Shown here piece after piece: positions 5,726 to 61,951 of a stretch of DNA of 64,000 bases. The notes below the pieces were generated by a model. It saw only the letters and a list, made by a program, of their open reading frames with translations. It was not told where the DNA came from and made no database searches. The stretch lies in IMG/VR virus record IMGVR_UViG_3300037440_000222; one strand, written 5' to 3'. A program made the position numbers and the translations under genes. This stretch comes from a virus. Each line of letters opens with the position of its first letter. The first letter of the stretch is position 1.

Positions 5726-5728
5726 ATG

Positions 5729-6153: not shown

Positions 6154-6155
6154 CG

Positions 6156-6365: not shown

Positions 6366-6382
6366 TTGTATCTTCCTAGATG

Positions 6383-7386: not shown

Positions 7387-7387
7387 A

Positions 7388-8092: not shown

Positions 8093-8100
8093 TTGTATCA

Positions 8101-8224: not shown

Positions 8225-8238
8225 AATGTTAATGTTGT

Positions 8239-20244: not shown

Positions 20245-20713
20245 CAGTTTTTTTGAGTGCGTTGATAGCGGCACTTATAAATGACTTGAATTCCCTTTCT
20301 AGTTTATAGGTCTGATATGCAAGTGTATTGCGACTTTCACCAAATCGTGCATCAAATTGTGGAAGTAATTCAAGTTCTTCATCCCACTCGCAATTGGGAC
20401 ATTGCTCATTGTGTGCAGTTTTCAATTCCTCATAATCAAATACATTCACGTCGTCTTTGACTGGTTGCATCAATGTGATGCGTTCAAGCCATTGGTGTGG
20501 AGGTTTTGCTTTTACTATTTCTGCAACGCGATTTTGATAACCGAAATAAGTCTTAGCATATGTGAGCATTGGTGTATGCCACACATGCCAAAATAACTTT
20601 TCGCCTTCCCATTCAGGAATAATTAAGGAGGGATTTATTCCCCTTATCGTTAACTCACTAACTGCTCTTTCAAATCTTTGTTGATAAAAGTCGGACATAT
20701 TCAGATTGCTCAT
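20234..20713 (-). CDS. hypothetical protein
   Basis: ORF track. ATGA overlap with the ParM-like gene. Confidence 0.55.
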   Translation of the reverse strand: MSNLNMSDFYQQRFERAVSELTIRGINPSLIIPEWEGEKLFWHVWHTPMLTYAKTYFGYQNRVAEIVKAKPPHQWLERITLMQPVKDDVNVFDYEELKTAHNEQCPNCEWDEELELLPQFDARFGESRNTLAYQTYKLEREFKSFISAAINALKKTDEN

Positions 20714-29952: not shown

Positions 29953-30534
29953 CTAGGTTGTGGTCGCCGCTAACAGCCGTTCGATTTGTCGTTTTCTCGC
30001 ATCGGCATCAGCGGCAGCATCAGCGGCAGCATCAGCGGTGGCATAAGCAGCATTAGACGCGACAGTAGCGGCACGGGTAGAATAGGCAGCAGCAGCGGCA
30101 GCATTAGCGGCGGCATGAGCAGCATAAGCAATAGCATAGGCAGCAGCAGCGGCAGCATCAGCGGCAGCATCAGCGGCAGCATCAGCAGCATCAGCAGCAT
30201 CTTTCAATTCCGTTATTGTTGCTTTGCCAATTAGATATAGACGTGCTGCTTCAATAGCCTTTTGTGGCCTGCTGTCATTTGGGTATTTTTCCTCAAAAAC
30301 TGGCAAGACTATCTCGGCTTCTGCCAGGGCGAATTCCTGCACGGTTCGCATCGGCATTGTGTAGCAGGCCAGCCACACTTTATCGGCGGCGGGTATGCGT
30401 TCATCCTTTAGCGCAGTGGATAACTGCACAGATTTACGCCCGCCAAAGAGGGCTTTCAGGTGATCGCGGGTATATTCCGCGCACGGGTTGAGTGCGAGAA
30501 TGCTATCAATTGTCAGTCGTGGATTGTTATTCAT
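29953..30534 (-). CDS. protein with Ala-rich A-A-D/Y periodic repeat C-terminal half
   Basis: ORF track. Contains KDAADAADAAADAAADAAAAAAYAIAYAAHAAANAAAAAAYSTRAATVASNAAYATADAAADAAADADARKRQIERLL. RBS GGAGAG. The other frames through the repeat are also open, which is an artefact. Confidence 0.6.
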   Translation of the reverse strand: MNNNPRLTIDSILALNPCAEYTRDHLKALFGGRKSVQLSTALKDERIPAADKVWLACYTMPMRTVQEFALAEAEIVLPVFEEKYPNDSRPQKAIEAARLYLIGKATITELKDAADAADAAADAAADAAAAAAYAIAYAAHAAANAAAAAAYSTRAATVASNAAYATADAAADAAADADARKRQIERLLAATTT

Positions 30535-46254: not shown

Positions 46255-47697
46255 ATGGATAAGGAAACCCAAGCACTTTTTGAAAATATGAGTGGTCTGA
46301 TGGAAAAGCAGACCGCTGTCTTAGAAAAAGCGTTAGACTCTAATAAAGCTGCCGCATCCACTATGACCGCCAACACCTTACACGGCGGCGGCGGTCTGTG
46401 GTCAGTTGCCGGACTTGAGCAGGAAATCGTCACCGCCCACATCCGTCCGCAAGGTATTGACCGCGTTCTACCCCTGTTCGCCACCAACAAGGAAGACCCG
46501 CGTTTCGGCGGTCTTACAGGCTTCACAGACGTGACCGGCGCAGAACCGGACAACGCTTGTGACGACGCTCCCACTGGCTTTATGAAGGGATGCACCCTAA
46601 CTGCCCGTTTCGGCATGACCCGTCGTGACACGAACACGATGGAGTTCAACAAAATCATCACCCGTTTGCACAGGGGCGATTTCATGGACTTGCGCTTAGT
46701 CGGGTCTGTCCTCGGTCTGACCAATCTACAACCTCGTGGTTTGAACGAGCAGGAAATCCTGACCCTTGTCACACAGGCCGAAATGGTCACAGCAGCCGTC
46801 AATGCTGAACGCAAACTGGTCAAGGAAATGTGGCAGGGTACTTACGGTACGTCCACCGAGTTCCCTGGCCTTGATTCCCAAATCGCGACTGGACAGAAGG
46901 ATGCTGACAACGGTGTCGCATGTCCCGCGCTTGATAGTGACGTGAAAGACTTCAACTTCAACAACGTCGAAGGCGCGTCCCCGTCCATTGTCGAGTACCT
47001 ATCAATGCTTGAGTGGTTTATCCACTTCAATGCTGAACGGATGGGACTGTTACCCGCATCGTTCTTCATTGCGATGCGCCCCGAACTGTGGCAAGTCTTA
47101 ACCGAAGTGTGGCCGTGCCAGTACAACACCGGCAAATGCGCCACTTCCATCGTCGGTAACGGCTCTCGCGTGATTATCGACGGTCGTGACAACATCGCTG
47201 ACCGTGACTCAATGCGCCGTTCAATGACAATCGAAGTCAATGGTCGCGTGTATCCAGTTGTCACCGACGACGGTATTCACGAAGCTACCAACATCACTAA
47301 CGGCAACTTACTGGCTGGTCAGTACGCATCCAGCATCTACTTCGTCCCGCTGACCGTTGCCGGTAACTTCCCTGTCACTTACCGTGAATACCTTGACTAT
47401 CGTTCGCCAATTGCCAACGCCAACTCCGCGTTACTGCGTGGTCGTCAAGACTTCTGGTCAGATGATGGAGTGTACCTGTGGTTCATCGAGAACAACAAGT
47501 ATTGCTACAAACTCGGTCTAAAAACTGAGCAGCGTATCGTTCTGCGCACACCGCAACTAGCTGGTAAAATCCAGAACGTTATGTACGAGCCGCTGCAACA
47601 CCTGCGTTCTAGCGACCCCGCGAGTCCATATTTTAGTGACGGGGGCGTTAGTCTCAAAGGCGGTTTGAGTGAACCTAAGGCAGTATGGAACAGCTAA
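46255..47697 (+). CDS. major capsid protein (by position, size and strong terminator)
   Basis: 480-aa ORF after the scaffold-like gene. RBS GAAGGAAA. Followed by a strong intrinsic terminator. Confidence 0.6.
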   Translation: MDKETQALFENMSGLMEKQTAVLEKALDSNKAAASTMTANTLHGGGGLWSVAGLEQEIVTAHIRPQGIDRVLPLFATNKEDPRFGGLTGFTDVTGAEPDNACDDAPTGFMKGCTLTARFGMTRRDTNTMEFNKIITRLHRGDFMDLRLVGSVLGLTNLQPRGLNEQEILTLVTQAEMVTAAVNAERKLVKEMWQGTYGTSTEFPGLDSQIATGQKDADNGVACPALDSDVKDFNFNNVEGASPSIVEYLSMLEWFIHFNAERMGLLPASFFIAMRPELWQVLTEVWPCQYNTGKCATSIVGNGSRVIIDGRDNIADRDSMRRSMTIEVNGRVYPVVTDDGIHEATNITNGNLLAGQYASSIYFVPLTVAGNFPVTYREYLDYRSPIANANSALLRGRQDFWSDDGVYLWFIENNKYCYKLGLKTEQRIVLRTPQLAGKIQNVMYEPLQHLRSSDPASPYFSDGGVSLKGGLSEPKAVWNS

Positions 47698-47724: not shown

Positions 47725-47756
47725 AAGAGTCGGGATAACACCCGACTCTTTTTTTA
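47725..47756 (+). terminator. intrinsic terminator after the capsid gene
   Basis: AAGAGTCGGG-ataaca-CCCGACTCTT followed by TTTTTT. Confidence 0.8.
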
Positions 47757-47973: not shown

Positions 47974-48360
47974 TTATTTCTTAGAAGACTTGCTGGACTT
48001 TGGGGAACTGAACGGTTCAGACTCGTCGCCTTCGTCCTCATCAACTTCCTCAATGTCTTCGATTGCAGCATCTTCAAAAGACGCTTCGGGCGAAGTATTG
48101 CCACTTACAGAAGTTGAGTCACTATCCGCCGGTTCAAATTCAAAACCAACTGGCTCATCATACTCATCATACGGATGCCACTCACCTTGACCAGTCCCAC
48201 GCTTGACCGACGTGTACAATTTAGCAACGCCCTCTTCATTCGTCGCACCGAACACGCGCAAACTAACAAAATCATCTGAAAACACTTCGACAATGACCGC
48301 AGCACGCGCACCGTTCTCGCTTTCAAAATGCACAATCCTGCCTAGACCTGTTTCAAACAT
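47974..48360 (-). CDS. hypothetical protein with acidic Ser/Glu/Asp tail, opposite strand
   Basis: ORF track. Confidence 0.5.
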   Translation of the reverse strand: MFETGLGRIVHFESENGARAAVIVEVFSDDFVSLRVFGATNEEGVAKLYTSVKRGTGQGEWHPYDEYDEPVGFEFEPADSDSTSVSGNTSPEASFEDAAIEDIEEVDEDEGDESEPFSSPKSSKSSKK

Positions 48361-48476: not shown

Positions 48477-48665
48477 ATGTCAAACGATAAACAGCGTGTC
48501 CGCAAAACTATCTATCTTGACTCCGACGTTGCTGACCGTCTTCAGGAACTTGCGGATAAGAATAGACGCTCATTTGCGGGTCAAGCTGAATTCATTATAA
48601 ATAACGAAATTGAGCGCGACGATGCGCGTGTCCCATTGGTAAAAATCAATGACCCTAAAAAGTGA
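48477..48665 (+). CDS. ribbon-helix-helix (CopG/Arc-like) DNA-binding protein
   Basis: KQRVRKTIYLDSDVADRLQELADKNRRSFAGQAEFII fits a beta-strand plus two helices RHH layout. Confidence 0.6.
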   Translation: MSNDKQRVRKTIYLDSDVADRLQELADKNRRSFAGQAEFIINNEIERDDARVPLVKINDPKK

Positions 48666-48885
48666 GACTATCGTTTACCGTCACGCCTATTTCTACATTG
48701 TCAAACGAGTGAACTCCGCAGGCGACAAACGTTATACTCCCGTTATCGACAACAAAATGACACGCATCTCATGGACAACTTCGGGGATGGCTAGGCTATA
48801 TGGTGAAGCGGTTGCGTTGCGTTTGCGTAAGAAACGATTAGTCGCGCTACAATCTGTCATATCTAAACCACAAGAGAAAGAATAA
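48649..48885 (+). CDS. hypothetical small protein
   Basis: ORF track. Overlaps both neighbours. Confidence 0.5.
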   Translation: MTLKSETIVYRHAYFYIVKRVNSAGDKRYTPVIDNKMTRISWTTSGMARLYGEAVALRLRKKRLVALQSVISKPQEKE

Positions 48886-50231
48886 TGGAACAAATCGCAC
48901 GCACCAACCACGACTCGTTATACTGGCTAGACGGAAAGACTGGTAAGCCCGTAACTACCCGTCACAAAGATACTACATGGTGGACGCAGAAGAAAGACTA
49001 TCCTTATCCAATGACGATAGAGATTATGTCCACGCCCAACGGTGGCGGCAATTCACCGCGCTATAACGATGAGTGGTTAGAATGGCTTATCGAACTAAAT
49101 AACCGTCATGGACAGAACAATTCCCAACAAGCTATCCGCAGACTAGCTGCCGTCTTATTCAATCGTGCAGCAAACTCACACTTATCCCACAAGAAATATG
49201 TTGAGCTAGGTGACAATCCCAAAGCGGAAGCAATCACGACCGGAAGCGGTTATACAGTAGGCGGTGTCTATCTTGCTAACTATGTCAAAATTATTGGCGA
49301 TAAACAAAACAACGCTTATCCTATCGAAACTCTTTGCATCAAAGACCGTCCGCCCAATCTTGACGAAGTTAACCCCGACACTCACCGCTGGCTATTTTGT
49401 CTAGGAACTTCCATCGACAATGGCAAAATCCTTGCGCCCGATAATTTACCCGCAACTGGTTATGCGCCAAACGGATACCCTACAATAACGTGGTGGCCGT
49501 TGCTAACAAAGGAACGAGTAGCATTTATCCGTGCAGAAAAAGTCACTATCGGTGTATCTATCCCGACCAACTCAAAACCTATTCCCGAACCTGACAGGAG
49601 TAATCAAATGGCTAACAAAGGTTTCATCGCAATTGTAGATAACGACCTCGGAGTTCACGTTCTACGCGAGTCCACCGACCCTGAGCGTTATCAAAATATT
49701 ATTGATGTTGCGTTCACGCCCCAAGTGCCGCCTGACCCCAAACCCGTTCCAGAACCTGACCAACTTACCCTGCTCTGGCCTACTGTCGAGAAGCGCGTGA
49801 CCCAACGGTTCGGCGTAAATGCACATATCTATTCCAAATTCGGACTTCCTGCGCACGGCGGACTCGACTTAGCCGCACCGATGGATAGCAAACTGTTCGC
49901 AGTTACGGATATGAAATGCAGTCGCGTCGATACACAGACTCAGCATCCGTCCTACGGTTGGTCTGTCCGTTTCGAGTTCAAACATGCAGGTTTCACCTAC
50001 GAAGTCACCTACGCTCATCTAATCAGACCCGCTAAAGTTCGTGTGGGCGATGTTGTGCAACGCGGCGCGGTTATTGGGTTCGCGGACAGTACGGGGAACT
50101 CAACAGGTTCGCATCTGCATATTATGTTGAAGAAGTTTGGCGCGACTGCACGGAAAGAGAATGTTTATAACGGTGTTCAGTGGCCTTTCGACATCGTGGA
50201 CGTTACCCCATACTTCGCTGAGTTGCGTTAA
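48885..50231 (+). CDS. M23 (LytM-type) peptidoglycan metallopeptidase, probable endolysin or virion lysin
   Basis: C-terminal HGGLDLAAP (HxxxD), YAHLIRPAKVRVGDVVQRGAVIGFADSTGNSTGSHLHIML (HxH). Confidence 0.8.
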   Translation: MEQIARTNHDSLYWLDGKTGKPVTTRHKDTTWWTQKKDYPYPMTIEIMSTPNGGGNSPRYNDEWLEWLIELNNRHGQNNSQQAIRRLAAVLFNRAANSHLSHKKYVELGDNPKAEAITTGSGYTVGGVYLANYVKIIGDKQNNAYPIETLCIKDRPPNLDEVNPDTHRWLFCLGTSIDNGKILAPDNLPATGYAPNGYPTITWWPLLTKERVAFIRAEKVTIGVSIPTNSKPIPEPDRSNQMANKGFIAIVDNDLGVHVLRESTDPERYQNIIDVAFTPQVPPDPKPVPEPDQLTLLWPTVEKRVTQRFGVNAHIYSKFGLPAHGGLDLAAPMDSKLFAVTDMKCSRVDTQTQHPSYGWSVRFEFKHAGFTYEVTYAHLIRPAKVRVGDVVQRGAVIGFADSTGNSTGSHLHIMLKKFGATARKENVYNGVQWPFDIVDVTPYFAELR

Positions 50232-50233: not shown

Positions 50234-50788
50234 ATGCACCGCTGGCTAGCATTAGTTGAACAATTTGACAACGAAAATCTACGTCCTATTCCTGAACCAT
50301 TGTCAGGCATTCGTTATACGTTTCAGGAATTGTCTGACAATGGTATCAGCATTGTTCGTAGGATTAAGGCGTTCAACGGAACAGATACCTACATCTATAT
50401 CCTAAAACGCTCCATTCCCTATCTCATCGAAAACGAAGTGGCGTTCCTTAATGTCATGCAATCCTCTGGCTACGTCCCACGCTTTGACCGCTATGACAAA
50501 TATACTCTACGCATAGAGGACTTGGGACAGTCCGAACCTGTTACCAACTGGTCTATATTCCGTGACCATTGTGCTAAATTGCTACACGCGCTAAGTTCCC
50601 GTTCTGTCAGGCACGGTGACATCACTGAGCAGGCGGTTATTATCCGTAACAATAAACCGTATCTGATTGACTTCGCGGAGTCCCGTTGGAAATATGACTC
50701 TGCGCCAGATAAACAGGGTAAGACTGATGAAACCCTAATGGGTGAATTGGTGCATCGTTTAGTTGCAAGAGCTACTACGAGCGCGTAA
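50234..50788 (+). CDS. small protein-kinase-fold (RIO/Kdo-kinase-like) protein
   Basis: SVRHGDITEQAVIIRNNKPYLIDFAES resembles the catalytic loop plus metal-binding DF motif of RIO/LPS kinases (HGDL.e.N.l......lIDf). Confidence 0.45.
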   Translation: MHRWLALVEQFDNENLRPIPEPLSGIRYTFQELSDNGISIVRRIKAFNGTDTYIYILKRSIPYLIENEVAFLNVMQSSGYVPRFDRYDKYTLRIEDLGQSEPVTNWSIFRDHCAKLLHALSSRSVRHGDITEQAVIIRNNKPYLIDFAESRWKYDSAPDKQGKTDETLMGELVHRLVARATTSA

Positions 50789-51576
50789 TGACTGAAATAG
50801 ACGACTTGGTAACTATCTCTGCCGATGACGGCGACATCATCCTCGTTAAGACAGACAATAATGATGCGTTTCATTCATTCGTTGACATCTACGGACGCGC
50901 CAATCCACAAAAGCGCGTAGTGTTCCTTGCCGTCGAGTCCCTGGATGACGTTCGTAAAGCTGACCCCCGCGCATTGTGGAAACTAGGACTGTTGCAAAAT
51001 AATTTCAAGTTCCCGTCCGACACCAATACTCGCGCAGAAGCAATGTGGTTTTTTATCCAACAAACTGTTCACTTTCAGGGCAAGAATGTCATTGACTTAG
51101 GTTGCGGAACAGGCGACTTCCTTCATCGCGCATTTGAAGCGGGAGCGCAACACGTTCAAGGCGTTGATAAAGACCCGTCGCGCATCCACGTCCCATCTAT
51201 TTTTATCGGCAACCGTATGCTTATTGCTGCAAATAACGTTCTCGGTGGTGTTGGTAAAAACCTATCCTTTGACCTAAATGCTGCAATAGCCGAGGACTTC
51301 CGTTTCCAACCGAAATATGAAATTGCGTTCTGTTTTAGCGTCCTACCGTATCTTGACGACCCACATGTAGCTTTGAAATGGATGCACAGCAACTTTGATA
51401 CGCTTGTCCTTGAATTTCAATATGCTGGCGATGGCAACGGATTTGACTTTATAAAAGATGATACAGATGCGCTGGAACTTATCAGAACGAACACCGACTA
51501 TAAACTAGAGGTAATCGGTAAAACTCCTGTCAAAGAGGACAAATTCTATCGCACTATCTGGCTATGCACAAAATGA
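50788..51576 (+). CDS. class I SAM-dependent methyltransferase
   Basis: Motif I VIDLGCGTGDFLHRAFEAGAQHVQGVD. TAATG coupling with the upstream gene. Confidence 0.75.
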   Translation: MTEIDDLVTISADDGDIILVKTDNNDAFHSFVDIYGRANPQKRVVFLAVESLDDVRKADPRALWKLGLLQNNFKFPSDTNTRAEAMWFFIQQTVHFQGKNVIDLGCGTGDFLHRAFEAGAQHVQGVDKDPSRIHVPSIFIGNRMLIAANNVLGGVGKNLSFDLNAAIAEDFRFQPKYEIAFCFSVLPYLDDPHVALKWMHSNFDTLVLEFQYAGDGNGFDFIKDDTDALELIRTNTDYKLEVIGKTPVKEDKFYRTIWLCTK

Positions 51577-52328
51577 CAAACACCGACCTACAAATCATCG
51601 TCACCACCTGTGACAAATACGCGTGGGCATTGCGACCATCTGCATACTTATTCAACACTCATTGGTCTGCATCCGCACTTGTCCACGTCCTTTGCGAGTC
51701 ACCCATCAGCAATCTACCTCCCAACTTCCAACCACGTCCTATCTCGCTACCCGATAACGGCGGTTGGCCTCGCAAATTATGGACAGACGGTTTGATAAAA
51801 TACCTGCATTCCATCCCGCAGCAATTTGTCATTATCATGTTAGAAGATTACTGGCTGACCCGCGACGTGAACCTACCTGCCATCGACTACGCGCTGGAAT
51901 ACATGATGCAATACCGTTCTATCCTGCGCGTTGACTTAACTACTGACCGACTCTACGCCGGTGGAGTTAAGCAACACGACACTTACCGCTGGTTAGACTT
52001 TGTGCAAGCTGACCATTCCCCTTACGAAATGTCGCTGATGCCTGGGTTGTGGAACAAGAAACTGTTACTGGATATTTTAGAACCTGGCTGGTCGCCTTGG
52101 GACGTAGAAACTATCGGAACGAACAAGGTTAACGAGAGCGAAATGGTTGTGCTTGGAACACGTCAGAACCCTATCACTTTTGTTAATGGGATGCGCGACC
52201 ATACTGAAGACGTGAATGTCAACGGTATAAAAGAACCGCATCGCTCAAAGGTAAAAGAATGGATTCCGACCAATGCGGAAATTGTTGATTTTCCCTGGCA
52301 CGAACGACCGAACAATAAACCTGATTAG
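51564..52328 (+). CDS. hypothetical protein in the glycan island
   Basis: ORF track. An alternative ATG at 51573 gives an ATGA overlap. No motif recognised. Confidence 0.55.
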   Translation: MHKMTNTDLQIIVTTCDKYAWALRPSAYLFNTHWSASALVHVLCESPISNLPPNFQPRPISLPDNGGWPRKLWTDGLIKYLHSIPQQFVIIMLEDYWLTRDVNLPAIDYALEYMMQYRSILRVDLTTDRLYAGGVKQHDTYRWLDFVQADHSPYEMSLMPGLWNKKLLLDILEPGWSPWDVETIGTNKVNESEMVVLGTRQNPITFVNGMRDHTEDVNVNGIKEPHRSKVKEWIPTNAEIVDFPWHERPNNKPD

Positions 52329-52334
52329 GAGTTT

Positions 52335-52718
52335 GTGATGATTGAAAGAATTCTCAAAAAGTTTGGTTATTTGAAATATTCAGAATTGTCAAAATTACTA
52401 AATGAACCCAAAAAGACAAGGGTCAAATGGATAACCATAGAAAATGCAAGTAGCAAAAAAAAGAATTTCTATCATAAACTTAGAGTGAAAGATATTAGTG
52501 AATATATCTTTCCAGATTTTCCGAGTCCTTATTTTCTAGCGCCTGATGATGATAAAAGTATACGAGAGAAATTGCCAGAAAGTGCCGAGATTACTTTTAT
52601 CATGAATTCGGGAAGAATTATCAAAACCAAAGTGGCTATCAGACATTTAGACGCGATTACTAAAATACTTGATGAGGAGTTATATCAATTTTATTCCTCA
52701 TACCGTGTTTGGGAATAA
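52335..52718 (+). CDS. hypothetical protein, AT-rich coding region
   Basis: ORF track. RBS GGAG. Confidence 0.5.
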   Translation: MMIERILKKFGYLKYSELSKLLNEPKKTRVKWITIENASSKKKNFYHKLRVKDISEYIFPDFPSPYFLAPDDDKSIREKLPESAEITFIMNSGRIIKTKVAIRHLDAITKILDEELYQFYSSYRVWE

Positions 52719-53302
52719 CAATGACAACTAAATCCTACGAATTACAACGCGCACTCGGATATTTACATATCCCTGAACTTGACTTACTTATTCACACAGT
52801 CAAATCCCTGCCCGCTAATCCAATTGTAGCCAATTTGGGCGCAGGTGGTGGCACGTCAGGAACGGCAATTGCGGAATCCCGCAACGACGTAACTCTTATC
52901 ACCGTTGATAAAACTTTTGACGCCTCCCCGCTTGGTTGTATAGTTGCAGAAATCAACGCATTGAAAGAAATTGGCTTACATGACAAAATGGTTAAAGAAA
53001 ACCGCTATTTCACTATACACGGTAACAGTCCCGACGTTGGACTCTATTGGGAACAACACGCTAACCAATTTGGTATCCATCCTGAACTAGATATGGTATT
53101 TATCGACGGCGACCACTCCTATGAAGGATGCAAAGCAGACATCGAAATGTGGACACCGCACATCAGACACGAAGGTATCGTTGCTATTCACGACTATGAC
53201 CCTGTTATGTGGCAAAGCGTGGTGAAGGCAACTGACGATATGATGAAAGACCATGTTCAGATAGCGTTAGTGGATAGTCTTATCGTGTTTGAGTTGCGCT
53301 AG
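52709..53302 (+). CDS. class I SAM methyltransferase (Methyltransf_24/CmcI-like)
   Basis: VANLGAGGGTSGTAIAE (motif I) and MVFIDGDHSYEGCKADIEMW...GIVAIHDY. Confidence 0.65.
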   Translation: MGITMTTKSYELQRALGYLHIPELDLLIHTVKSLPANPIVANLGAGGGTSGTAIAESRNDVTLITVDKTFDASPLGCIVAEINALKEIGLHDKMVKENRYFTIHGNSPDVGLYWEQHANQFGIHPELDMVFIDGDHSYEGCKADIEMWTPHIRHEGIVAIHDYDPVMWQSVVKATDDMMKDHVQIALVDSLIVFELR

Positions 53303-54017
53303 ACAGATGTCAAAGGAACAAATCCATGTCGTAGGCTATCCGCGTTCCGGTAACGTCTGGATGTCACGATTACTAGGTGACGCGCTAGACAGTCCTGTAA
53401 AATCAGGTGGCGGCAAGGTTTCTATTGCGGACGAAGGATTAGACCGTCGGGGAAACTATATTATCCGCCAGCGTCACTTAAAACGACTACCGTCTGAGGG
53501 AAAAATCGTGTTCGTCTATCGTGACCCGCGTGATGTCGCAGTATCGTTCGCCCACTATTGGCAAACAACGTTACAGGACGCGATTGACCGCATCGGACAC
53601 GGAAACCCTAAACATCTAAAAGGTTGGTCGTGGTTGCGTTTCATGCAGCATTGGTACGAAACTAAATATGAGAACATGACGTGGGTAAGCTACGAACAGT
53701 TGCAAAGGAACACGGTCGGACATCTAAAAATCATCATGTTCATCCTTGACTTGAAACCGACCAAACCGTTGCAGCGTGTGGTTCATAGACAATCCTTTGC
53801 AGTACGCAAACGCCTAATCTCATACTTAGGTGACAATTGCAAAACCTATAACGCTGGAATTCAGAATCAATCTATGCGTGCAGGACGTTCAGGTGATTGG
53901 TGTGAACAATTCAATCCTGAACAGCGTAAGCAAACGCATGATTTATGGTGGGATTGGTTGAAGTTGCTAGGTTACGAATCTGATGAAAATTGGTGGATGG
54001 ATAAATGTCTAATCTAA
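53289..54017 (+). CDS. sulfotransferase-domain protein
   Basis: 5'-PSB-like IHVVGYPRSGNVWMSRLL and 3'-PB-like IVFVYRDPRDVAVSFAHY. An internal ATG at 53307 is possible. Confidence 0.7.
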   Translation: MSCARQMSKEQIHVVGYPRSGNVWMSRLLGDALDSPVKSGGGKVSIADEGLDRRGNYIIRQRHLKRLPSEGKIVFVYRDPRDVAVSFAHYWQTTLQDAIDRIGHGNPKHLKGWSWLRFMQHWYETKYENMTWVSYEQLQRNTVGHLKIIMFILDLKPTKPLQRVVHRQSFAVRKRLISYLGDNCKTYNAGIQNQSMRAGRSGDWCEQFNPEQRKQTHDLWWDWLKLLGYESDENWWMDKCLI

Positions 54018-57000
54018 AAGTCTTGATGAAGCCGCATCTTGATAGTTTTGATAAACACGAATCAGGTATTCGTCGTGTAATTGAGCAATATTTCCGCCTA
54101 CTTCCCAATTATGGTATCGACCTTGTTAATTCCGACGCAACCAGCTATGATTTGCTTGCAGTACATGCAGGTATGACGGGGGCAGATGCGGATATAGCGC
54201 ATTTACACGGAGTATATTTTACTGCCGACTATCCAGCATCCGCATGGGAATATCGAGCAAATGAACACATTGTCCACGCGCTACGCAACGCTTTAGAAGT
54301 CACCGTTCCGTCAAATTGGGTCGCAGAAACTATCCAGCATGATATGCGTTTCAATCCTACCGTTGTTCCGCACGGTATTATTCCTGAAGAATGGGAACAC
54401 TCTTACCGACTACAAGACTATATCTTATGGAATAAGAATCGTAACGCAGATGTGTGCGACCCGACTCCAGTTATCAACCTTGCACGCTTACGCCCCAACG
54501 CACAGTTCAAAATCACGTTCTATCCTACTAATCAGACCGCACCGTTGAAAAATGTGCAAGCAATCGGGATGCAGCAGCATGACGTTATGAGACGAATAAT
54601 CAAATCTGCACAAGTCTATCTATCCACAACTAAAGAGACGTTTGGCATCGGCATCCTAGAAGCACTTGCAGCAGGCGTTCCGGTTCTAGGCTATAAGTAT
54701 GGTGGTAACACTATGCTGGTCGAACATGGTATCAACGGCTACTTAGCGCGAGTCGGGGACGTTGAAGACCTTGCGCGTGGTCTAGATTACTGCATAAAGC
54801 ACCGTGACGTTCTATCTGCTAACGCACGAGTCACCGCCAAAAAATGGGATTGGCCGAGCGCGGTTGAGAAAGTTGCGCAAGTTTACCAACGCGCTTACCA
54901 GAAGAAACTAGCAATTTCTTCATCCGATTACTATTCCACCGCCGTTGTTATCCCATGTTACAACTATGCTCACACGTTAGAACGTGCTGTCAAATCTGCA
55001 TTGTCCCAAACGCACCAACCTACTGAAATCATCATTGTCGACGATGGTTCAACTGACAACACCCGTGAAGTTGCGGAACGTTTACAATCCGAACACGCTA
55101 TCGTTGAATACGTCTACCAAGAGAATTTAGGTGTCGCTCATGCCCGTAACACAGGTATCTCATTATCAAAGTCTAATTTTATTTGTTGCTTAGACGCTGA
55201 CGATGCGCTCGAACCCCGTTTTCTGGAAGCGTGTATAGACCCGTTCCGCACCGACCGTTCACTCGGAATCACCTACACCGGCATCATGACCGTTCACGAA
55301 GATGGACGGCAGGAATTGTCACAATGGCCGGAAGAATTCAACGCAGACAAACAACTATCTCCACGCGGCGCAGACAATCTACGTGGTCAGAATCAGATAC
55401 CTACGTGTAACGTGTTCAAACGTCAAGCGTGGGAGCGCACAGGCGGTTATCGGCAACGGTACGCACCACTAGGTGCAGGCGCGGAAGATGCAGAATTCTG
55501 GACACGTATTGTCTCACTCGGCTACGGTGCTAAAAAAGCGACCAACGCGGGACTGTTCTTGTACTCACTCAATTCTGGCGGAGTGTCCCGCGCATGGAAC
55601 GATGGGTCAGTTGACAAGAATTTGCTAGAACCGCAATGGCTATCTATGCACCCATTTTCGCGTGACCGCCGTCACCCATTTGCCAGTCGTGCCACTCCGG
55701 TCAATGGCGTTTCGCACCCTGTTAGACAGTATGACGAGCCAGTTGTGTCAATTGTCATTCCTGTAGGAATAAGTCACTTGCAGCAGGTTATCAACGCGAT
55801 AGACTCGGTGGAAGCGCAGTCCTACCGTAAGTGGGAGTGCATCGTAGTCATTGACGGCGTACTCATTCCTGACGAATTGGAAACTGCGTATCCGTTTGTA
55901 AAATTTTATTCAACAGGCTACGGACGCATCGGTGCAGGTGCAGCACGTAATCTAGGCGCAAAACACGCACGCGCCCCGTTTCTGGTATTTCTGGACGCGG
56001 ACGACTCATTACACCCCGACTTTCTGCTAAAGTCCCTAACTTACTGGCGCGAGTATAAATCTATCATCTATACCGATTACGTTAATAAGATTATCGTCTC
56101 GCCTGAAGGTCTGCAAGACTTTCCGCAACAAGACGTGCTATCCTACATTGAGAAAACGCAGGAAGCGGTCATTGCTGGACGTTCAGCAGACTATGACTGC
56201 GACCGCGCACAGGCGCAAGGCGACTCAGGCAACCGCGACCTGTACCATTGGTGTCTAGTTACCTGTCTTGTCCCGAAAGTCTGGCACGATGAAATAGGCG
56301 GGTTCGATGAGAAAATGCAGACCTTTGAGGACGTACTCTACCATTGGTCACTTGCCCGAAAAGGATATTGTTACACCCGACTCCCCGAACAACTTATCGT
56401 TTACCGAATGTATACCGGACAACGACGCGAATTAGCATCACTCTACACCGACGAAGGTAGACAGAACGCGACCAAGATGCTAGAATATGCTTGGTCACAA
56501 CTACAAGGAATAGAAAAAATGGCGTGCGCAAAATGTCCCACCCCCAAACGACAAACTATCAATTTGGAACAAAGTATGGTGTCACTTATGAGTAACCCAA
56601 CTAATCAGCAACAGACAGGTAAAGAAGACGACAACTACGGAATGTATGACTACACGCATCCTAATCGCGGCAATCACAAAGTTGTTGGTGCGGTTACTAG
56701 ACGAGACTACGGATACCGTCAAGGCGGTGAGCGTTTCTTAGTCCATCACGCAGACGCACAAGCACTTCCGCAATATTTCCGTCTAGTGCAGGAAACGACT
56801 ATCGAAGGCGTACCTGACATTGTTGATATTCCCGCCGCACCGCAGCCTATTCAGCCAATTATCCTTGACAGACCTGCTGAACAACCTGTTACAGAACACG
56901 TTACAGCGCAACTTATTGCAGAAATCAGCGATGATGACCTTCTATCCCATATCGCACCCGTTGCAGACACCGACCCTAAACGCATCATTGACGAGGAAAC

Positions 57001-57268
57001 TGACACGGTAAAGGACGAAATTGACCCCGAACCGCGCACCATCGCGTCCGCAGATGAACCAATCGACTTGACCAAACTTCCAGGTATCACTCCCGTAATC
57101 GCCGATATGTTACGTGCAGACGGTGTTGATACGAAGGCGAAAGTGCTTGCGTTGGGAGTAGAAGGATTGCAGAAATATTCAGGTATCGGTGAAGTCCGCG
57201 CAATGGGGATTATCACCGCGCTTGAAATTGACCAACGTGACGCAGAAACGGTTGTAGAGGAAGTGTAA
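54005..57268 (+). CDS. 1087-aa multidomain glycosyltransferase (GT4-like + two GT2-like modules + C-terminal HhH-like tail)
   Basis: GT4: TKETFGIGILEALAAGVPVLGYKYGGNTMLVEHGINGYL. GT2-1: VVIPCYNYAHTLERAVKSALSQTH..IIIVDDGSTDNT, CLDADDAL. GT2-2: SIVIPVGISHLQQVINAIDSVEAQSY..CIVVIDG, FLDADDSL. Confidence 0.85.
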   Translation: MSNLKVLMKPHLDSFDKHESGIRRVIEQYFRLLPNYGIDLVNSDATSYDLLAVHAGMTGADADIAHLHGVYFTADYPASAWEYRANEHIVHALRNALEVTVPSNWVAETIQHDMRFNPTVVPHGIIPEEWEHSYRLQDYILWNKNRNADVCDPTPVINLARLRPNAQFKITFYPTNQTAPLKNVQAIGMQQHDVMRRIIKSAQVYLSTTKETFGIGILEALAAGVPVLGYKYGGNTMLVEHGINGYLARVGDVEDLARGLDYCIKHRDVLSANARVTAKKWDWPSAVEKVAQVYQRAYQKKLAISSSDYYSTAVVIPCYNYAHTLERAVKSALSQTHQPTEIIIVDDGSTDNTREVAERLQSEHAIVEYVYQENLGVAHARNTGISLSKSNFICCLDADDALEPRFLEACIDPFRTDRSLGITYTGIMTVHEDGRQELSQWPEEFNADKQLSPRGADNLRGQNQIPTCNVFKRQAWERTGGYRQRYAPLGAGAEDAEFWTRIVSLGYGAKKATNAGLFLYSLNSGGVSRAWNDGSVDKNLLEPQWLSMHPFSRDRRHPFASRATPVNGVSHPVRQYDEPVVSIVIPVGISHLQQVINAIDSVEAQSYRKWECIVVIDGVLIPDELETAYPFVKFYSTGYGRIGAGAARNLGAKHARAPFLVFLDADDSLHPDFLLKSLTYWREYKSIIYTDYVNKIIVSPEGLQDFPQQDVLSYIEKTQEAVIAGRSADYDCDRAQAQGDSGNRDLYHWCLVTCLVPKVWHDEIGGFDEKMQTFEDVLYHWSLARKGYCYTRLPEQLIVYRMYTGQRRELASLYTDEGRQNATKMLEYAWSQLQGIEKMACAKCPTPKRQTINLEQSMVSLMSNPTNQQQTGKEDDNYGMYDYTHPNRGNHKVVGAVTRRDYGYRQGGERFLVHHADAQALPQYFRLVQETTIEGVPDIVDIPAAPQPIQPIILDRPAEQPVTEHVTAQLIAEISDDDLLSHIAPVADTDPKRIIDEETDTVKDEIDPEPRTIASADEPIDLTKLPGITPVIADMLRADGVDTKAKVLALGVEGLQKYSGIGEVRAMGIITALEIDQRDAETVVEEV

Positions 57269-57421: not shown

Positions 57422-57739
57422 ATGTACTTCTATTTCTACTTTTTACTCACCGCACTTGCTATCTGGCGCATATCCTCACTTTTAGCGCGTGAGGACGGTC
57501 TATTTAACATCTTCCTACGCATCAGGCACTACGTTGGGGTGCGCTATGACGACAAATCGGAAACCTACGGAACGAACACCGTCTCTAAGGGAATTCTGTG
57601 CGTATGGTGTTCTTCCCTGTGGTTCACACCGTTCGCGTCGCTCCTGTTCGCTACAGACCCCGTAGAATGGTTGATTTATACACTATCGCTGTCCACAATC
57701 GTTATCTTGTTTGAGTCTACTATCACAAGGTTAAGTTAA
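57422..57739 (+). CDS. DUF1360-like membrane protein
   Basis: LTALAIWRISSLLAREDG...GILCVWCSSLWFTPFA resembles the DUF1360 pattern (fR...L...D ... C.wC.s.W). Confidence 0.45.
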   Translation: MYFYFYFLLTALAIWRISSLLAREDGLFNIFLRIRHYVGVRYDDKSETYGTNTVSKGILCVWCSSLWFTPFASLLFATDPVEWLIYTLSLSTIVILFESTITRLS

Positions 57740-59094
57740 TGTCCCGCGCAGACACACCAACCCTTCTACCTCTAGACACCTATGCTCGCATAATGGGACT
57801 AAACCCGCTTGCGTTCAATCAAGCTGTCGGACACGGAACAGATGACCGCGAGATATTCAAAATTGCCAACGCGCAGCAACCTATCACGTTCCAATACGAC
57901 TATCAGGGTCATTCACAACTGAGCCGCGAAACACTTGCACTCGCTATCAATCGTGCAGAACATGACATTGCTACCTATCTCGGATGGTGGCCTGCTCCTA
58001 TATGGATTTCGCAAGAAGTTAAACGTTTCCCGCGTCCATTTCTGAAATATGCGTTTGGCGACGGACTTGATTTACGCGGCCAAGAGAAGGCTGTCCGTAC
58101 AGAATGGGGCAAAGTGATACAAGGTGGTCGTCGCGCAACGACTCTGCTGGATACCGCCAACAAAGCTGTTGAAATGGTGTTTTCAGACGAGGATGGTGAC
58201 GGGTTTGACGAAACTGTCACTATCACGATTACGGGACTGACCATCACCAACGTCTGTGAAGCAAAGGTTTACTTTGCAGGTAAATCTGCTGACCCCGTGT
58301 GGGAGATACGTCCATTTCGTTCCAAAACGCTTACTGCCGGAACACTCGTTATCGTTGCTGATAGCTGGCTGTTCCTAGACCCCGACTTGCAGAACGCAAT
58401 CCCTATTGGTGACGACCACCCTGTTATCGACGCGGATGACATTGCCAATTACGTCGACTCCGTTGAAGTCTACCGTGAATTTACCGACTTTTCGCAAGCA
58501 TCTGCACAATTCCTGTGGGAACGCCAACCTAATCTAAAGCTAACATTTTGCACAAATTGTAGCAATACAGGTTGCGAAACCTGCTCTTACGTTGCACAAG
58601 ACGGCTGTCTGCTTCCTAAAAATCCGCACATGGGACTGGTATCGACTTCAGCAGCAGAATACGACTCTGTTGAAGAAGTCTGGAATCCGGTCAATTATGC
58701 TAACGTATGTTCAGCACTCGGAAACGGACGCGAACCAGATATTGTGAAACTGTGGTACTACGCTGGTTTCCTTCCGCAACGATATTTGGATGGGACGGTC
58801 TGCAACCCGCTTTCATTAGATAACCAACTTGCTCACGTTATTGCCTATCTTGCGACTGCACGATTAGATTGCGACTTCAACGCCAATAATAACGTTGCGC
58901 AACGGATGAAAATGTTGCAGCGCGACCACAGCGAGTCATTTGAGGGTGGAAGCACATTCTTTGTCGAACCGTCACTTTTAGATAATCCGTTTGGAACGCG
59001 ACTTGGCGAACTACGTGCCTATAAGACGCTCAAACAATTTACTGGACGCGGCGACCAGAAACGCATTGGTCAATGGTCGGCGGTGGCGGCGTAA
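57739..59094 (+). CDS. hypothetical virion-module protein (451 aa)
   Basis: ORF track. TAATG coupling on both sides. Confidence 0.55.
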   Translation: MSRADTPTLLPLDTYARIMGLNPLAFNQAVGHGTDDREIFKIANAQQPITFQYDYQGHSQLSRETLALAINRAEHDIATYLGWWPAPIWISQEVKRFPRPFLKYAFGDGLDLRGQEKAVRTEWGKVIQGGRRATTLLDTANKAVEMVFSDEDGDGFDETVTITITGLTITNVCEAKVYFAGKSADPVWEIRPFRSKTLTAGTLVIVADSWLFLDPDLQNAIPIGDDHPVIDADDIANYVDSVEVYREFTDFSQASAQFLWERQPNLKLTFCTNCSNTGCETCSYVAQDGCLLPKNPHMGLVSTSAAEYDSVEEVWNPVNYANVCSALGNGREPDIVKLWYYAGFLPQRYLDGTVCNPLSLDNQLAHVIAYLATARLDCDFNANNNVAQRMKMLQRDHSESFEGGSTFFVEPSLLDNPFGTRLGELRAYKTLKQFTGRGDQKRIGQWSAVAA

Positions 59095-59431: not shown

Positions 59432-60943
59432 ATGGCAGGAACAGGACAATCACAACGCGACGCAATGGTCAATTCGCTAAACCGCGCATGGATTATTGCG
59501 GGTCGGGCGCGTCCAGACCACACACCCGACTATCAATCCTACACGCGTCTCGGCCCGATTACGTGGAATATCGGTTCGGTCAATCCTATCTTTGACCCTG
59601 ACCCGCAGAAACTTGGGTCATTTATCCAGACAGGTTCGTTCCGTGATGCGGAAGAACGTCCAACAACGTCGCTCATCAGTCACTACGCTGCTGACATCAA
59701 ATCGGCGCTCATTGACCTTGCGACTAAGAAATGCCCCGCAGATATTCAGTTGCACATTGGTAAATGCGAAGACCCGTCCATCTTTGAGAACTATGTCAAA
59801 GCGATTATCTTTGAAGATGTGCAGTTAGAGACGTACTCGACAGAAGACCTCGGCGCATTAGAACCTGGTGAACAGGGGAAAGTTGATGAAACTGGTGAAA
59901 TCTCAGCAGCGCGGTTCTACGAGTTCCGTCCGCTATCGGTTTCTGCGCGTACCCCGTCTGCCGTTACTAATCGTGTAATCGACGTAGTGATTTGCGACAA
60001 TCAATCCTGCGGCGACTGCGAAGATGAATCAGACGGCTGCCAGCGCATCATCGCTATTACCAATGCGGCAGGCGGTTCACCGTCCACACCGGCAGACATC
60101 GTGTACTCGTTGGACAAAGGACTGACGTGGTTAGCACATGACATCGACAGTCTGGACGCGGCGGAAGACCCTAGCGAAGTTGATTGTGTTGGCCGCTACG
60201 TGGTAGTGGTCAGTAATGCGAGTGGTTCGCTGCACTACGCGCCGCTTGCTGAACTCAAAGCAGGCGTTGACCCCGATTTTACCGAAGTTTCAACAGGATT
60301 TGTTGTGAACGGTGAACCTAACGCTATTCACTCGGTCGGACGGAAAGCGTACATCGTTGGTGATTTGGGTTATATCTACACCACCACCGACCCGACCGCA
60401 GGTGTCACGCCTATCGACGAAGGTAGCGCAACGGTCGCAGTTCTGAACGCCGTTTACGGTCTGAGTGAGGAGTTTGCGGTTGCTGTTGGTAACGACGGCG
60501 CAATCATAGTTATCAACAACGACCTCGCGTCCTCTCTGACCACGACTCCTATCGCAATTGGCGAAGATATTATTTCTGTCTTTGTCAAGAATAGGAAAGA
60601 GTGGTTCATCGGAACAGCGTCAGGTAACTTCTGGTACACGCTGGACGGTGGTGAAACTTGGACTCAGAAAGTCCTTGACGGTAGTCCAACCGCTGTTACT
60701 GCGATTGATATGCCGACCGCAAGTGTCATGTACGTGTCGGCCACAGTCTCAACTGGCGGCACGGTGTATCTATCAATCAACGGTGGACAATCCTTTGAGC
60801 GTCTGCCGAGCGACACAGGCATCTTCCCGCCGAACGATGAGATTGATGCAATTGCGGTATGTGCATTTGACCCTGACTTCTTTGTCGCGGTTGGTCTAGG
60901 CGACGATGCAACGGACGGGTTTATCGCTATTGGAAACGACTAA
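59432..60943 (+). CDS. putative major tail protein with C-terminal BNR/Asp-box-like repeats
   Basis: Lies immediately before the chaperone/tape-measure pair. Asp-box-like SLDKGLTWLAH, TLDGGETWTQK and SINGGQSFERL. Confidence 0.4.
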   Translation: MAGTGQSQRDAMVNSLNRAWIIAGRARPDHTPDYQSYTRLGPITWNIGSVNPIFDPDPQKLGSFIQTGSFRDAEERPTTSLISHYAADIKSALIDLATKKCPADIQLHIGKCEDPSIFENYVKAIIFEDVQLETYSTEDLGALEPGEQGKVDETGEISAARFYEFRPLSVSARTPSAVTNRVIDVVICDNQSCGDCEDESDGCQRIIAITNAAGGSPSTPADIVYSLDKGLTWLAHDIDSLDAAEDPSEVDCVGRYVVVVSNASGSLHYAPLAELKAGVDPDFTEVSTGFVVNGEPNAIHSVGRKAYIVGDLGYIYTTTDPTAGVTPIDEGSATVAVLNAVYGLSEEFAVAVGNDGAIIVINNDLASSLTTTPIAIGEDIISVFVKNRKEWFIGTASGNFWYTLDGGETWTQKVLDGSPTAVTAIDMPTASVMYVSATVSTGGTVYLSINGGQSFERLPSDTGIFPPNDEIDAIAVCAFDPDFFVAVGLGDDATDGFIAIGND

Positions 60944-61008: not shown

Positions 61009-61674
61009 ATGACTGAGCAAACTGCTGAGAAAGAAACGCAAGACGAATTATTGCCTGAACCAAAGGAACAGGAAACGGATGGGGGAAGCGTGAACGGTAA
61101 ACCGACCTCAAAGCGCAAAACACCTGCTGCTGCGAAAGTCGCTAAACAGCGCGAGATTCAACTGAACGAGGATGATGAACTCGTTATCAAAGTTGTTAAA
61201 GAAGTTGATGATGACGGGAATACTGTCAAACGCGATGTACGTGTGCGCTTCAAATCCGTCGCCCCCTATCTGCTTTATGAAGTGACGCAGGCAATTGAAC
61301 AACCAACCCCACCGACTTATATCAATCCTAAATCGGAAAAAGAAGAATTCAACTACGACAGTCCGCAATACGAGTTGGATATGAAAGCGTACCAGCAAGA
61401 AGTGGACGAAGCAGTTGCAGACGCGCTCATTTTATTCGGTGTAGAAGTTATTGGTGAATATCCTAAAGAGTTTTATAACGATGAGTGGATTGCATCGTTG
61501 CGCTATACGAAAGTCATTGACCCGCAACTGAACACCGACGACGAATTCACGCGCAAGCTACTCTATAAGAAATTCATTCTAGGTATCGCGCCTGAACATA
61601 TCCGCAAACTGACTGAAATGTCGTCCGTGACGCAGGAGGAAATCGCGCAATCGCGAGACTCCTTTCAAGGTTAG
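61009..61674 (+). CDS. tail assembly chaperone (G-like, 0-frame product)
   Basis: Acidic 221-aa ORF directly upstream of the tape-measure gene. It is followed by a start-less overlapping ORF. Confidence 0.55.
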   Translation: MTEQTAEKETQDELLPEPKEQETDGGSVNGKPTSKRKTPAAAKVAKQREIQLNEDDELVIKVVKEVDDDGNTVKRDVRVRFKSVAPYLLYEVTQAIEQPTPPTYINPKSEKEEFNYDSPQYELDMKAYQQEVDEAVADALILFGVEVIGEYPKEFYNDEWIASLRYTKVIDPQLNTDDEFTRKLLYKKFILGIAPEHIRKLTEMSSVTQEEIAQSRDSFQG

Positions 61675-61951
61675 TCATTTAGGATACCCGATTGGTGAGG
61701 CGAGACTTAGGTTCGGTGTTGACCCACATATATCTTTCGGAAGCAAGTTTGAGGAATATCAGGCGTGCATCGCGGCGCGACTCGACTTATGGAAATGGGT
61801 ATCGACAGAGGAATATCCTAAATGGTTCAAAGCGGATGTCATCGCGTTTCACCAATTGAATAATTTAGTAAAAGTCTATACGCAGGACGAAGTAAACAAG
61901 AAACAGGATACGGAAGCTAAGAGAGCTAAAGCGAAGTCTAAGAGACGATAA
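61631..61951 (+). CDS. +1-frame extension ORF (T-like part of a G-T frameshift fusion)
   Basis: The +1 frame relative to 61009..61674 is open from 61631 to TAA 61949-61951. It has no ATG/GTG/TTG and reads ...LGYPIGEARLRFGVDPHISFGSKFEEYQACIAARLDLWKWVSTEEYPKWFKADVIAFHQL... The TAA overlaps the tape-measure ATG. Confidence 0.5.
   Translation, partial: RRRKSRNRETPFKVSHLGYPIGEARLRFGVDPHISFGSKFEEYQACIAARLDLWKWVSTEEYPKWFKADVIAFHQLNNLVKVYTQDEVNKKQDTEAKRAKAKSKRR

Follow-up and report, generated by a model that had tools for sequence, protein, structure and literature searches.

A capsid-adjacent cassette of predicted glycan-assembling and glycan-modifying enzymes in a lineage of uncultivated tailed phages

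Enzymes encoded by the cassette

The gene cassette described here lies at positions 50234-57268 of a 64-kb window (the whole stretch of DNA that was analysed, from the IMG/VR virus record IMGVR_UViG_3300037440_000222; unless a related locus is named, all positions refer to it). The window is a segment of a tailed-phage genome: small and large terminase genes are found at 36397 and 37055, a plus-strand structural arm bears the virion genes, and a minus-strand arm bears genes for replication, recombination, and RNA repair; eight tRNA genes form a cluster at 4611-9075. Between the head genes (capsid upstream) and the tail genes (downstream) of the structural arm, the cassette comprises seven open reading frames (ORFs), all on the plus strand, most of which overlap the adjacent gene at the start and stop codons (Table 1). 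A first-pass annotation, made from the sequence alone, had claimed seven consecutive plus-strand genes at this place, inside the virion-gene arm and downstream of a lysin gene. All of this was borne out, and the 448-amino acid (aa) product of the gene called lysin carries a C-terminal Peptidase_M23 domain (54.4 bits at residues 324-419). The calls of a sulfotransferase, a CmcI-like and a class I methyltransferase, and a GT4+GT2+GT2 enzyme also held up in Pfam scans, which covered the called ORFs with a length of 60 aa or more. For the ORFs beginning at 52709 and 53289, the start given is the TTG that yields the longest frame, and the true one may lie a few codons downstream. Dozens of related contigs carry homologues of six of the seven ORFs in an unchanged order, so that these represent genes rather than chance ORFs. 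The remaining one, a 127-aa orphan, matched no family and has no homologue in any related locus among the 82 sources described below; of the two proteins formerly listed as unknown, it is the one still without any match.

Table 1. Cassette genes and domains, followed by the other window features listed with them.
Feature	Position	Strand	Length (aa)	Basis or remark
Minimal RIO/Bud32-like kinase-fold protein	50234-50788	+	184	Family profile against PDB
Class I S-adenosylmethionine-dependent methyltransferase	50788-51576	+	262	Methyltransf_23; nearest full-length relative, WbdD methyltransferase domain
GT-A-fold glycosyltransferase (predicted)	51564-52328	+	254	AlphaFold2 and Foldseek; second core gene of the module
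Orphan ORF	52335-52718	+	127
Methyltransf_24 (CmcI-like clan) methyltransferase	52709-53302	+	197	Sugar methylation proposed
PAPS-dependent sulfotransferase (predicted)	53289-54017	+	242	Sulfotransfer_1 (PF00685)
Large glycosyltransferase	54005-57268	+	1087
GT4 (GT-B fold) domain of large glycosyltransferase	54005-54904	+		Glycos_transf_1
First GT2 (GT-A fold) domain	54917-55684	+		Glycos_transf_2, best stretch 314-476
Second GT2 domain	55727-56494	+		Second Glycos_transf_2 stretch; Glyco_trans_2_3 at 661-801
Conserved C-terminal domain	56507-56779	+		CxxC, then HPNxGxHxVxG...YGxRxGG
Helix-hairpin-helix domain, C-terminus	57065-57223	+		HHH_5
Major capsid protein (HK97 fold)	46255-47697	+	480	Upstream anchor of the module
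Terminator-like hairpin, directly 3' of capsid gene	47725-47750	+		Consensus match only
M23 peptidase-domain protein ("lysin")	48885-50231	+	448	Peptidase_M23
Small membrane protein	57422-57739	+		phrog_781 (5.8e-7); weak DUF1360 match
Cys-rich protein	57739-59094	+	451	Downstream anchor of the module
Probable major tail protein	59432-60943	+	503	C-terminal BNR/Ycf48-type beta-propeller
ORF	61009-61674	+	221
Tape-measure protein	61942-64000	+		PhageMin_Tail, 68.4 bits; frame open to window end
LytR-CpsA-Psr (LCP)-family glycopolymer transferase	19285-20274	-		Pfam, 60.1 bits; N-terminal hydrophobic segment

The 1087-aa product combines three glycosyltransferase (GT) domains in a single chain. 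Its GT4 domain, of a retaining family, matches Glycos_transf_1 with 57.6 bits (Pfam cut-off 26.4), and the E-x7-E motif therein (E211, E219) is invariant among homologues. Glycos_transf_2 matches with 182 bits over two stretches, above its cut-off, and invariant acidic residues occur in both GT2 domains, which belong to an inverting family, namely, D346-D347 together with D397, D399, and D400 (within LDADD, 396-400) in the first, and D664, D666, and D667 (within LDADD, 663-667) together with E775-D776 in the second. To these three domains, all of which had been predicted, two further ones not listed before have to be added at the C-terminus: a CxxC-containing conserved domain, detected in ∼23 of 71 distinct homologues, and a helix-hairpin-helix domain, scoring 24.3 bits (under the Pfam cut-off of 27 for HHH_5) and recorded in homologues too, although in only ∼14 of the 71. 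In two related loci, a separate ORF following the glycosyltransferase holds such domains, both the CxxC-type domain and the helix-hairpin-helix in L071 (13072-13617), and the CxxC-type domain in L094 (17203-17856).

By sequence, the PDB entries that best matched the tandem GT2 region were Escherichia coli K4 chondroitin polymerase (K4CP; 2z86, 3e-33) and Pasteurella heparosan synthase (PmHS; 8vh7, 1.4e-13), which likewise contain two GT-A domains in one chain. A glycosaminoglycan synthase cooperating with the sulfotransferase to make a chondroitin-sulfate-like polymer was considered and rejected because, at the residue level, similarity is confined to the nucleotide-binding half, a generic part, of a single GT2 domain. 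In the first GT2 domain, the N-terminal half aligned with the A2 domain of K4CP (81 bits over 124 residues, 306-429), whereas the stretch aligning the second GT2 domain with K4CP was non-significant; collinear similarity of both GT-A domains thus fails, and the match reflects the generic GT2 fold.

The other former unknown, of 254 aa, matched no Pfam or NCBIfam family. Its AlphaFold2 model (predicted local distance difference test score, pLDDT, 94.1) retrieved with Foldseek the glycosyltransferases POMGNT1, GnT-I, B4GALNT1, SpsA, and TarP (E-values from 2e-6, template modeling score ∼0.5), and D95, in the acidic motif LEDYW, is invariant in the family. The protein is therefore predicted, on the strength of the model, to be a GT-A-fold glycosyltransferase and to provide the fourth transferase domain of the cassette. 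As judged by their motifs, the four catalytic domains (GT-A, GT4, GT2, and GT2) are all intact.

The sulfotransferase scored 65.5 bits against Sulfotransfer_1 (Pfam cut-off 22), and the proteins of relatives were above the cut-off, too. Its best PDB matches are cytosolic sulfotransferases (among them 5x2b, SULT7A1 from mouse, with 4.8e-11). Conserved across 23 homologues are the motifs GYPxSGNxW, RDPRDxxxS, and RKGxxGDW as well as His63; the window enzyme reads YPRSGNVW (5'-phosphosulfate loop), RDPRDVAVS (3'-phosphate), and RAGRSGDW at the respective positions, and R78, S86, G199, G202, and W204 are invariant. His63, located in RQRH and nearly invariant in the family, is the putative catalytic base; aligned pairwise with 5x2b, it comes to lie two residues away from the His of the template and was thus assigned by position. 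The cytosolic sulfotransferases (PF00685) thus share with the phage enzyme the fold family, both cofactor-binding motifs (5'-PSB and 3'-PB), RKGxxGDW, and the catalytic His, whereas the window enzyme is shorter (∼240 aa), phage-encoded, and embedded among glycan enzymes. With all cofactor motifs present, it is predicted to be of the type dependent on 3'-phosphoadenosine-5'-phosphosulfate (PAPS), and with an apparently intact enzyme amid glycan enzymes, sulfation of a glycan at the expense of host PAPS may reasonably be inferred.

Of the two methyltransferases, the one encoded directly upstream of the sulfotransferase scored 45.2 bits against Methyltransf_24 (Pfam cut-off 26.3); its gene is present in 40 of the 82 sources, mostly immediately upstream of the large glycosyltransferase gene. 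The class I methyltransferase scored 36 bits against Methyltransf_23 (cut-off 27). Its family profile matched WbdD with 5e-11 over profile positions 24-169 of 172; WbdD occupied ranks two to four among the PDB matches, behind CmoB, which, however, spanned only half of the profile. WbdD phosphorylates the terminal mannose of the Escherichia coli O9a O-antigen and methylates the phosphate, which halts chain growth (PMC3482155). The gene preceding that of the methyltransferase had been called a kinase-fold protein, a call that remained below threshold in Pfam (RIO1, 17 bits, cut-off 22) but was sustained by the family profile, which found Rio2 in the PDB (7.4e-6). Residues K58, E68, H127-G128-D129, N140, and D146 were invariant in eight homologues. 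Genes for the kinase and the class I methyltransferase adjoin in most of the loci carrying them and are fused into one protein in three relatives (L056, L060, and L081). Because of this adjacency, the fusions, and the WbdD-like methyltransferase, we infer that the pair resembles WbdD in capping a glycan with methyl phosphate.

Conservation and variation among related phages

The comparison comprised 82 sources, which were metagenome contigs and loci from IMG/VR; 76 IMG/VR loci were retrieved with a profile of the large glycosyltransferase. In ∼70 related uncultivated phages, the GT4+GT2+GT2 enzyme is encoded behind the capsid gene. Across these sources, the large glycosyltransferase was found 79 times, the 451-aa protein 73 times, the capsid protein 66 times, the 503-aa tail protein 63 times, the GT-A protein 51 times, the small membrane protein 50 times, and Methyltransf_24 40 times, followed by the sulfotransferase (18-20) and the kinase (14). 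The order of genes did not change: a scaffold-like protein, the capsid protein, the GT-A protein together with variable enzymes, the large glycosyltransferase, the membrane protein, the 451-aa protein, and the tail genes. In three loci (L023, L027, and L065), the large glycosyltransferase gene has the capsid gene and the 451-aa gene as its immediate neighbours. When loci were picked by capsid similarity alone, a cassette marker followed the capsid gene in eight of the 10 with downstream sequence, and such markers persisted at capsid identities of 31-38%. The GT4+GT2+GT2 enzyme is thus constant across the lineage, whereas the tailoring genes around it are freely swapped. Among the latter are genes for a DegT aminotransferase (20 loci), an NAD-dependent 4,6-dehydratase/epimerase (10), and a PseB-like dehydratase (5), which point to unusual amino and deoxy sugars as likely constituents, and further genes for a GNAT acetyltransferase and additional GT2, GT8, GT10, and GT1-like enzymes.

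The cassette had previously been described as an island of the window phage. This term is wrong: its G+C content (0.43-0.48) is the same as that of the remainder of the window, and recent acquisition was rejected in view of its lineage-wide occurrence and the ordinary G+C content. The module is ancestral to the lineage, capsid-adjacent, and variable in content, which is a broader finding than the one originally noted.

The capsid protein itself was modelled by AlphaFold2 with a pLDDT of 83.5, confidence being low in the C-terminal tail, and its top Foldseek matches were phage capsids (PhiTE with 3.5e-10, Mic1, SPO1, and HK97). More than 1121 homologues were found in metagenomes, with identities between 54 and 69% among the 120 listed. 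In GenBank phage records, no DNA-level match to the cassette region and no encoded homologue of either the capsid or the GT-A protein was found. A tblastn search of 50,697 such records with the large glycosyltransferase returned only partial, generic GT2 matches covering at most 35% of the query, and neither the 30 records listed nor the ten most frequent organism names included a Mycobacterium phage. Relatives of the capsid protein were also found in metagenome-assembled genomes labelled as Gammaproteobacteria, Desulfuromonadales, Anaerolineales, Saccharibacteria, Altiarchaeales, and several candidate phyla. The spread of these labels points to mis-binning, and they were discarded as a clue to the host; the only source label recovered was "marine sediment metagenome."

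The first-pass annotation knew of no sulfotransferase in a cassette of this kind, which agrees with the searches: no homologue was found by tblastn in the same 50,697 GenBank phage records, and a literature search revealed no report placing a viral sulfotransferase in virion glycosylation, although metagenome surveys have already counted genes for sulfotransferases among the auxiliary genes of viruses (PMC8290583). The gene is, however, not unique to the window phage. Metagenomes contained 42 homologues, every contig examined showed the same gene order, and the family occurs in ∼19 related uncultivated phages. These include all three closest relatives (capsid identity 66-68%), each of which also encodes an M23 peptidase, from a shorter gene inside the cassette, and the GT-A protein; in two of the three, the large glycosyltransferase has 1104-1130 aa. 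The sulfotransferase gene is thus accessory but recurrent, and within this sub-clade it is stable. Within the 51 loci having the full interval from the capsid gene to the 451-aa gene, it co-occurred with the GT-A gene in 13/14 loci (p = 0.004), with GT8 in 3/3, and with a GT10 fucosyltransferase-like gene in 4/6, and was never found alongside one extra-GT2 family (0/12), but as the counts ignore shared ancestry, these figures are hints only.

In the related locus L001, genes for HNH homing endonucleases (9345-9842 and 12347-12904, both on the minus strand) interrupt the glycan cassette on the strand opposite to it, and in L096, the large gene matching the 598-aa ORF of the window (38878-40674) contains an intein with a LAGLIDADG domain.

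Proposed role in virion glycosylation and competing explanations

The reading best supported by these findings, to which we assign a probability of roughly 0.5, is that a methylated, sulfated, and methyl-phosphate-capped glycan is assembled in the cytoplasm on virion proteins. The four transferase domains would build an oligosaccharide of at least a few sugars from nucleotide sugars of the host, the Methyltransf_24 enzyme would methylate a sugar, the sulfotransferase would O-sulfate one, and the kinase would phosphorylate a sugar of which the WbdD-like methyltransferase would then methylate the phosphate, placing a methyl phosphate at the non-reducing end, as WbdD does on the O9a O-antigen. 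The particles would then leave the cell with an anionic glycan coat differing among related phages. Virion glycosylation is the most economical reading because the core glycosyltransferase adjoins the capsid gene throughout the lineage, the enzymes are soluble, and recurrent export machinery is lacking. The enzymes of the cassette are all soluble and encoded in one string of overlapping genes; of 442 cassette ORFs in related loci, 363 have no predicted membrane segment, and none of the 442 encodes a recurrent polytopic membrane protein that might serve as flippase, transporter, polymerase, or initiating transferase. That the acceptor would be a virion protein is the weaker part of the proposal. 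The leading candidate, and no more than that, is the disordered C-terminal tail of the capsid protein, in which a conserved DGGVS-x-R is followed by six to eight hypervariable residues rich in Ser, Thr, and Pro, nearly always including Ser or Thr, and then by AVW; the tail tube would be the second candidate. Virion O-glycosylation had already been suggested on the basis of the sequence, and gene position and enzymes fit it.

In mycobacteriophages, capsid and tail-tube subunits are reported to be modified at their C-termini by phage glycosyltransferases and an O-methyltransferase (PMC11600133 and PMC12619734, both citing Freeman et al 2023). By analogy, the module would work most like these genes: the cassettes of Che8, Corndog, and Myrna are, like that of the window, phage-encoded and combine tandem glycosyltransferases with an O-methyltransferase, the mycobacteriophage glycans reportedly being located on the structural proteins. 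The window cassette differs in that three transferase domains are fused in one protein of ∼1000 aa, in that the module directly adjoins the capsid gene and is kept throughout an entire lineage, and in that it adds a sulfotransferase and a kinase with a WbdD-like methyltransferase, to which relatives add genes for amino-sugar synthesis; no relationship between the sequences could be detected except for the generic GT fold. A second parallel is chlorovirus PBCV-1, in which A064R, a three-domain protein, and other enzymes combine glycosyltransferase domains and methylation to build the capsid glycan without the secretory machinery of the host. PBCV-1 infects eukaryotic algae and is unrelated in sequence to the window phage, yet both systems are multi-domain, virus-encoded, and cytoplasmic, the latter being a prediction in case of the window. 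To our knowledge, neither sulfation nor a methyl-phosphate cap has been reported for the PBCV-1 glycan.

Several observations weigh against this proposal. The similarity of the large glycosyltransferase to enzymes in GenBank phage records is generic and confined to the fold level, which makes the mycobacteriophage parallel one of analogy, not homology. No gene for PAPS synthesis was found in the window by the Pfam scans, so sulfation depends on PAPS from the host. The case for a virion acceptor rests on gene position and on the absence of recurrent export genes, and the proposal does not account for the helix-hairpin-helix tail, a domain of the DNA-binding type, on a glycosyltransferase. As to the cap, the pair shares with WbdD (PDB 4azs, 4azw, and 4uw0; PMC3482155) a kinase-fold and a class I methyltransferase domain, but the domain order in the fusion proteins is reversed, the genes are separate in the window, there is no coiled-coil ruler, and the kinase, of ∼160 aa, is a minimal one resembling Rio2 or Bud32 instead of the large eukaryotic-type kinase of WbdD. 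The top PDB match of the fusion protein of L081 (5384-6481) is WbdD, but this match is weak (E 0.0026). Moreover, Ala replaces the usual metal-binding Asn five residues past the catalytic Asp in the window kinase; with this Asn missing, the window copy may be inactive.

Some of the evidence would also suit a remodelling of the host envelope, in which a polysaccharide, made either on a lipid carrier of the host or on exported proteins of phage or host, would alter the surface of the infected cell and thereby, for example, mask receptors, exclude other phages, or aid release. The top NCBIfam models of the GT2 and GT4 domains, TuaG, EpsD, PgaC, and BshA, represent enzymes of cell-surface polymers, albeit all under their cut-offs; the O-antigen terminated by WbdD, the nearest structure to the methyltransferase, is lipid-linked (PMC3482155); and the small membrane protein conserved directly after the large glycosyltransferase in most relatives would count in the same direction. 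No other membrane protein recurs in the module. An LCP-family transferase is likewise encoded in the window, as had been recognized earlier (an NCBIfam domain model scored 58.6 bits, just under its cut-off of 62.3), which may attach a polymer to peptidoglycan. Its gene, however, is located 30 kb away on the other strand, and a single-sequence scan found no relatives in viral contigs. Two Thr/Pro-rich proteins formerly proposed as substrates fit this explanation better than glycosylation in the cytoplasm: that encoded at 3777-4610 has a hydrophobic anchor-like segment at both ends and that at 6586-7212 has one at the start, so that the Thr/Pro stretches are probably extracytoplasmic. On the other hand, the ∼50 fully spanned cassettes contain no recurrent candidate for a phosphoglycosyl transferase, flippase, ABC transporter, polymerase, or ligase, and the module belongs to the late structural arm as a constant core instead of occurring sporadically, as a moron would; the Pfam scans of the window ORFs also revealed no integrase family. 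Envelope remodelling is consequently regarded as unlikely.

Two other targets are conceivable for the same enzymes, and both appear less probable still. If the sugars were added to bases of the phage genome, the helix-hairpin-helix domain could hold the large enzyme on DNA, and clusters for the glycosylation of 5-hydroxymethylcytosine (5hmC) on uncultivated contigs do combine GT-A and GT-B enzymes and are in some cases found close to structural genes, with epimerases, second glycosyltransferases, and APH-type kinases (Pyle et al, bioRxiv 10.1101/2023.12.21.572611); a DNA-methyltransferase-like gene is present at 42817-44349 (phrog_67, 1.2e-13). Such pathways, however, need a 5-methylpyrimidine dioxygenase (TET-like, 5mYOX) or a hydroxymethylase of the thymidylate synthase type nearby, and neither the 5mYOX nor the ThyS family was found in Pfam scans of the window or in annotated relatives. 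The low share of homologues with a detectable helix-hairpin-helix, the absence of a homologue of the 42817-44349 gene from every relative, and a chemistry (four transferase domains, amino-sugar synthesis, sulfation, and methylation) far richer than the mono- to trisaccharides reported on DNA render DNA hypermodification highly improbable. Slightly less so is a soluble acceptor of another kind, be it a small molecule or a protein of phage or host without a structural role, modified during host takeover, with the adjacency to the capsid gene being a historical accident. That the sulfotransferase is nearest to cytosolic enzymes acting on small molecules and that all enzymes are soluble would be in line with this; but if there were no link to the virion, it would be difficult to see why the placement in the structural arm is kept where capsids are only 31% identical, and the assembly of several sugars with a chain-terminating cap is typical of surface glycans, making such an acceptor improbable.

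Extending virion glycosylation beyond the window, it appears possible, though doubtful, that a widespread lineage of tailed phages, all of them uncultivated and living in sediments and comparable environments, bears complex anionic glycans as a coat on its capsids and possibly also on its tails; in the window phage and its nearest relatives, these glycans would be O-sulfated and capped with methyl phosphate. In the parts of the literature accessible to our search, virion glycosylation of phages was found for only a few actinophages, in which it alters antibody recognition, and no description of the sulfation of any phage particle was found. If true, this would be the first case of a bacterial virus making a sulfated glycoconjugate, phage glycan chemistry would extend to sulfate and methyl phosphate, and glycan coats would have to be seen as a trait that is constant and linked to the capsid in a large lineage of environmental phages. 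The tailoring genes vary among related phages much like bacterial surface-polysaccharide loci, and their exchange would provide each phage with its own "glyco-serotype," an evolving layer comparable to bacterial O-antigens. A charged coat could conceivably also alter the sticking of particles to minerals, organic matter, and host envelopes, as well as their survival. As the cassette is compact and its enzymes are soluble, direct testing by co-expression with the capsid gene is feasible, and the small sulfotransferase, the fused three-domain glycosyltransferase, and the minimal kinase-methyltransferase capping pair are possible tools for glyco-engineering.

Flanking genes and other features of the window

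The 451-aa protein downstream of the module contains a conserved cysteine cluster (consensus CxxCxGxGCxxC...GC) and matched nothing in PDB or PHROGs by profile search; its position suggests a role in head-tail joining. It is followed by a 118-aa protein and the 503-aa protein, the profile of which matches Ycf48 (6e-13) and GH74 propellers at residues 328-460 and the N-terminal half of which retrieved nothing in profile searches of PDB and PHROGs. Its location upstream of the 221-aa ORF and the tape-measure gene makes a tail-tube role probable. Propellers of the BNR/Ycf48/GH74 type usually bind or cleave carbohydrates.

The terminator-like hairpin behind the capsid gene is a strong one; it has a 10-bp stem with six G-C pairs and is followed by TTTTTAT. 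Beyond it, a single gene on the minus strand (47974-48360), encoding 128 aa with an acidic C-terminus, interrupts the plus-strand genes of the structural arm; it is preceded by a promoter-like site at 48454-48425 that matches the sigma-70 type perfectly (12/12). The small plus-strand ORF next to it (48477-48665) has a weak ribbon-helix-helix match, and the two may constitute a regulatory switch upstream of the cassette.

On the minus-strand arm, the genes at 4696-5466 and 18763-19149 are paralogues sharing an HExxH-type motif (CLHEIGHHID and CLHEVGHFVD, respectively) and a C-terminal GGYxELYAELYAL stretch; they matched no Pfam family and look like small metallopeptidases. A 512-aa protein with a C-terminal VWA domain (14863-16401, minus strand) and an RtcB RNA ligase (26841-28133, minus strand; 231 bits) are encoded on the same arm, next to the cluster of eight tRNA genes, and the related locus L001 encodes a TROVE (Ro60-like) protein and a RimK-like ligase; together, all of these suggest an RNA-repair set of the Ro/RtcB type. 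Two further minus-strand genes encode an actin-like ParM/ALP protein (20710-21702; ALP_N 95.8 bits, MreB-like_C 44.4 bits) and, at 29953-30534, a protein in which an Imm5-like immunity-protein domain (45.7 bits) is followed by a long, low-complexity repeat rich in Ala and Asp.

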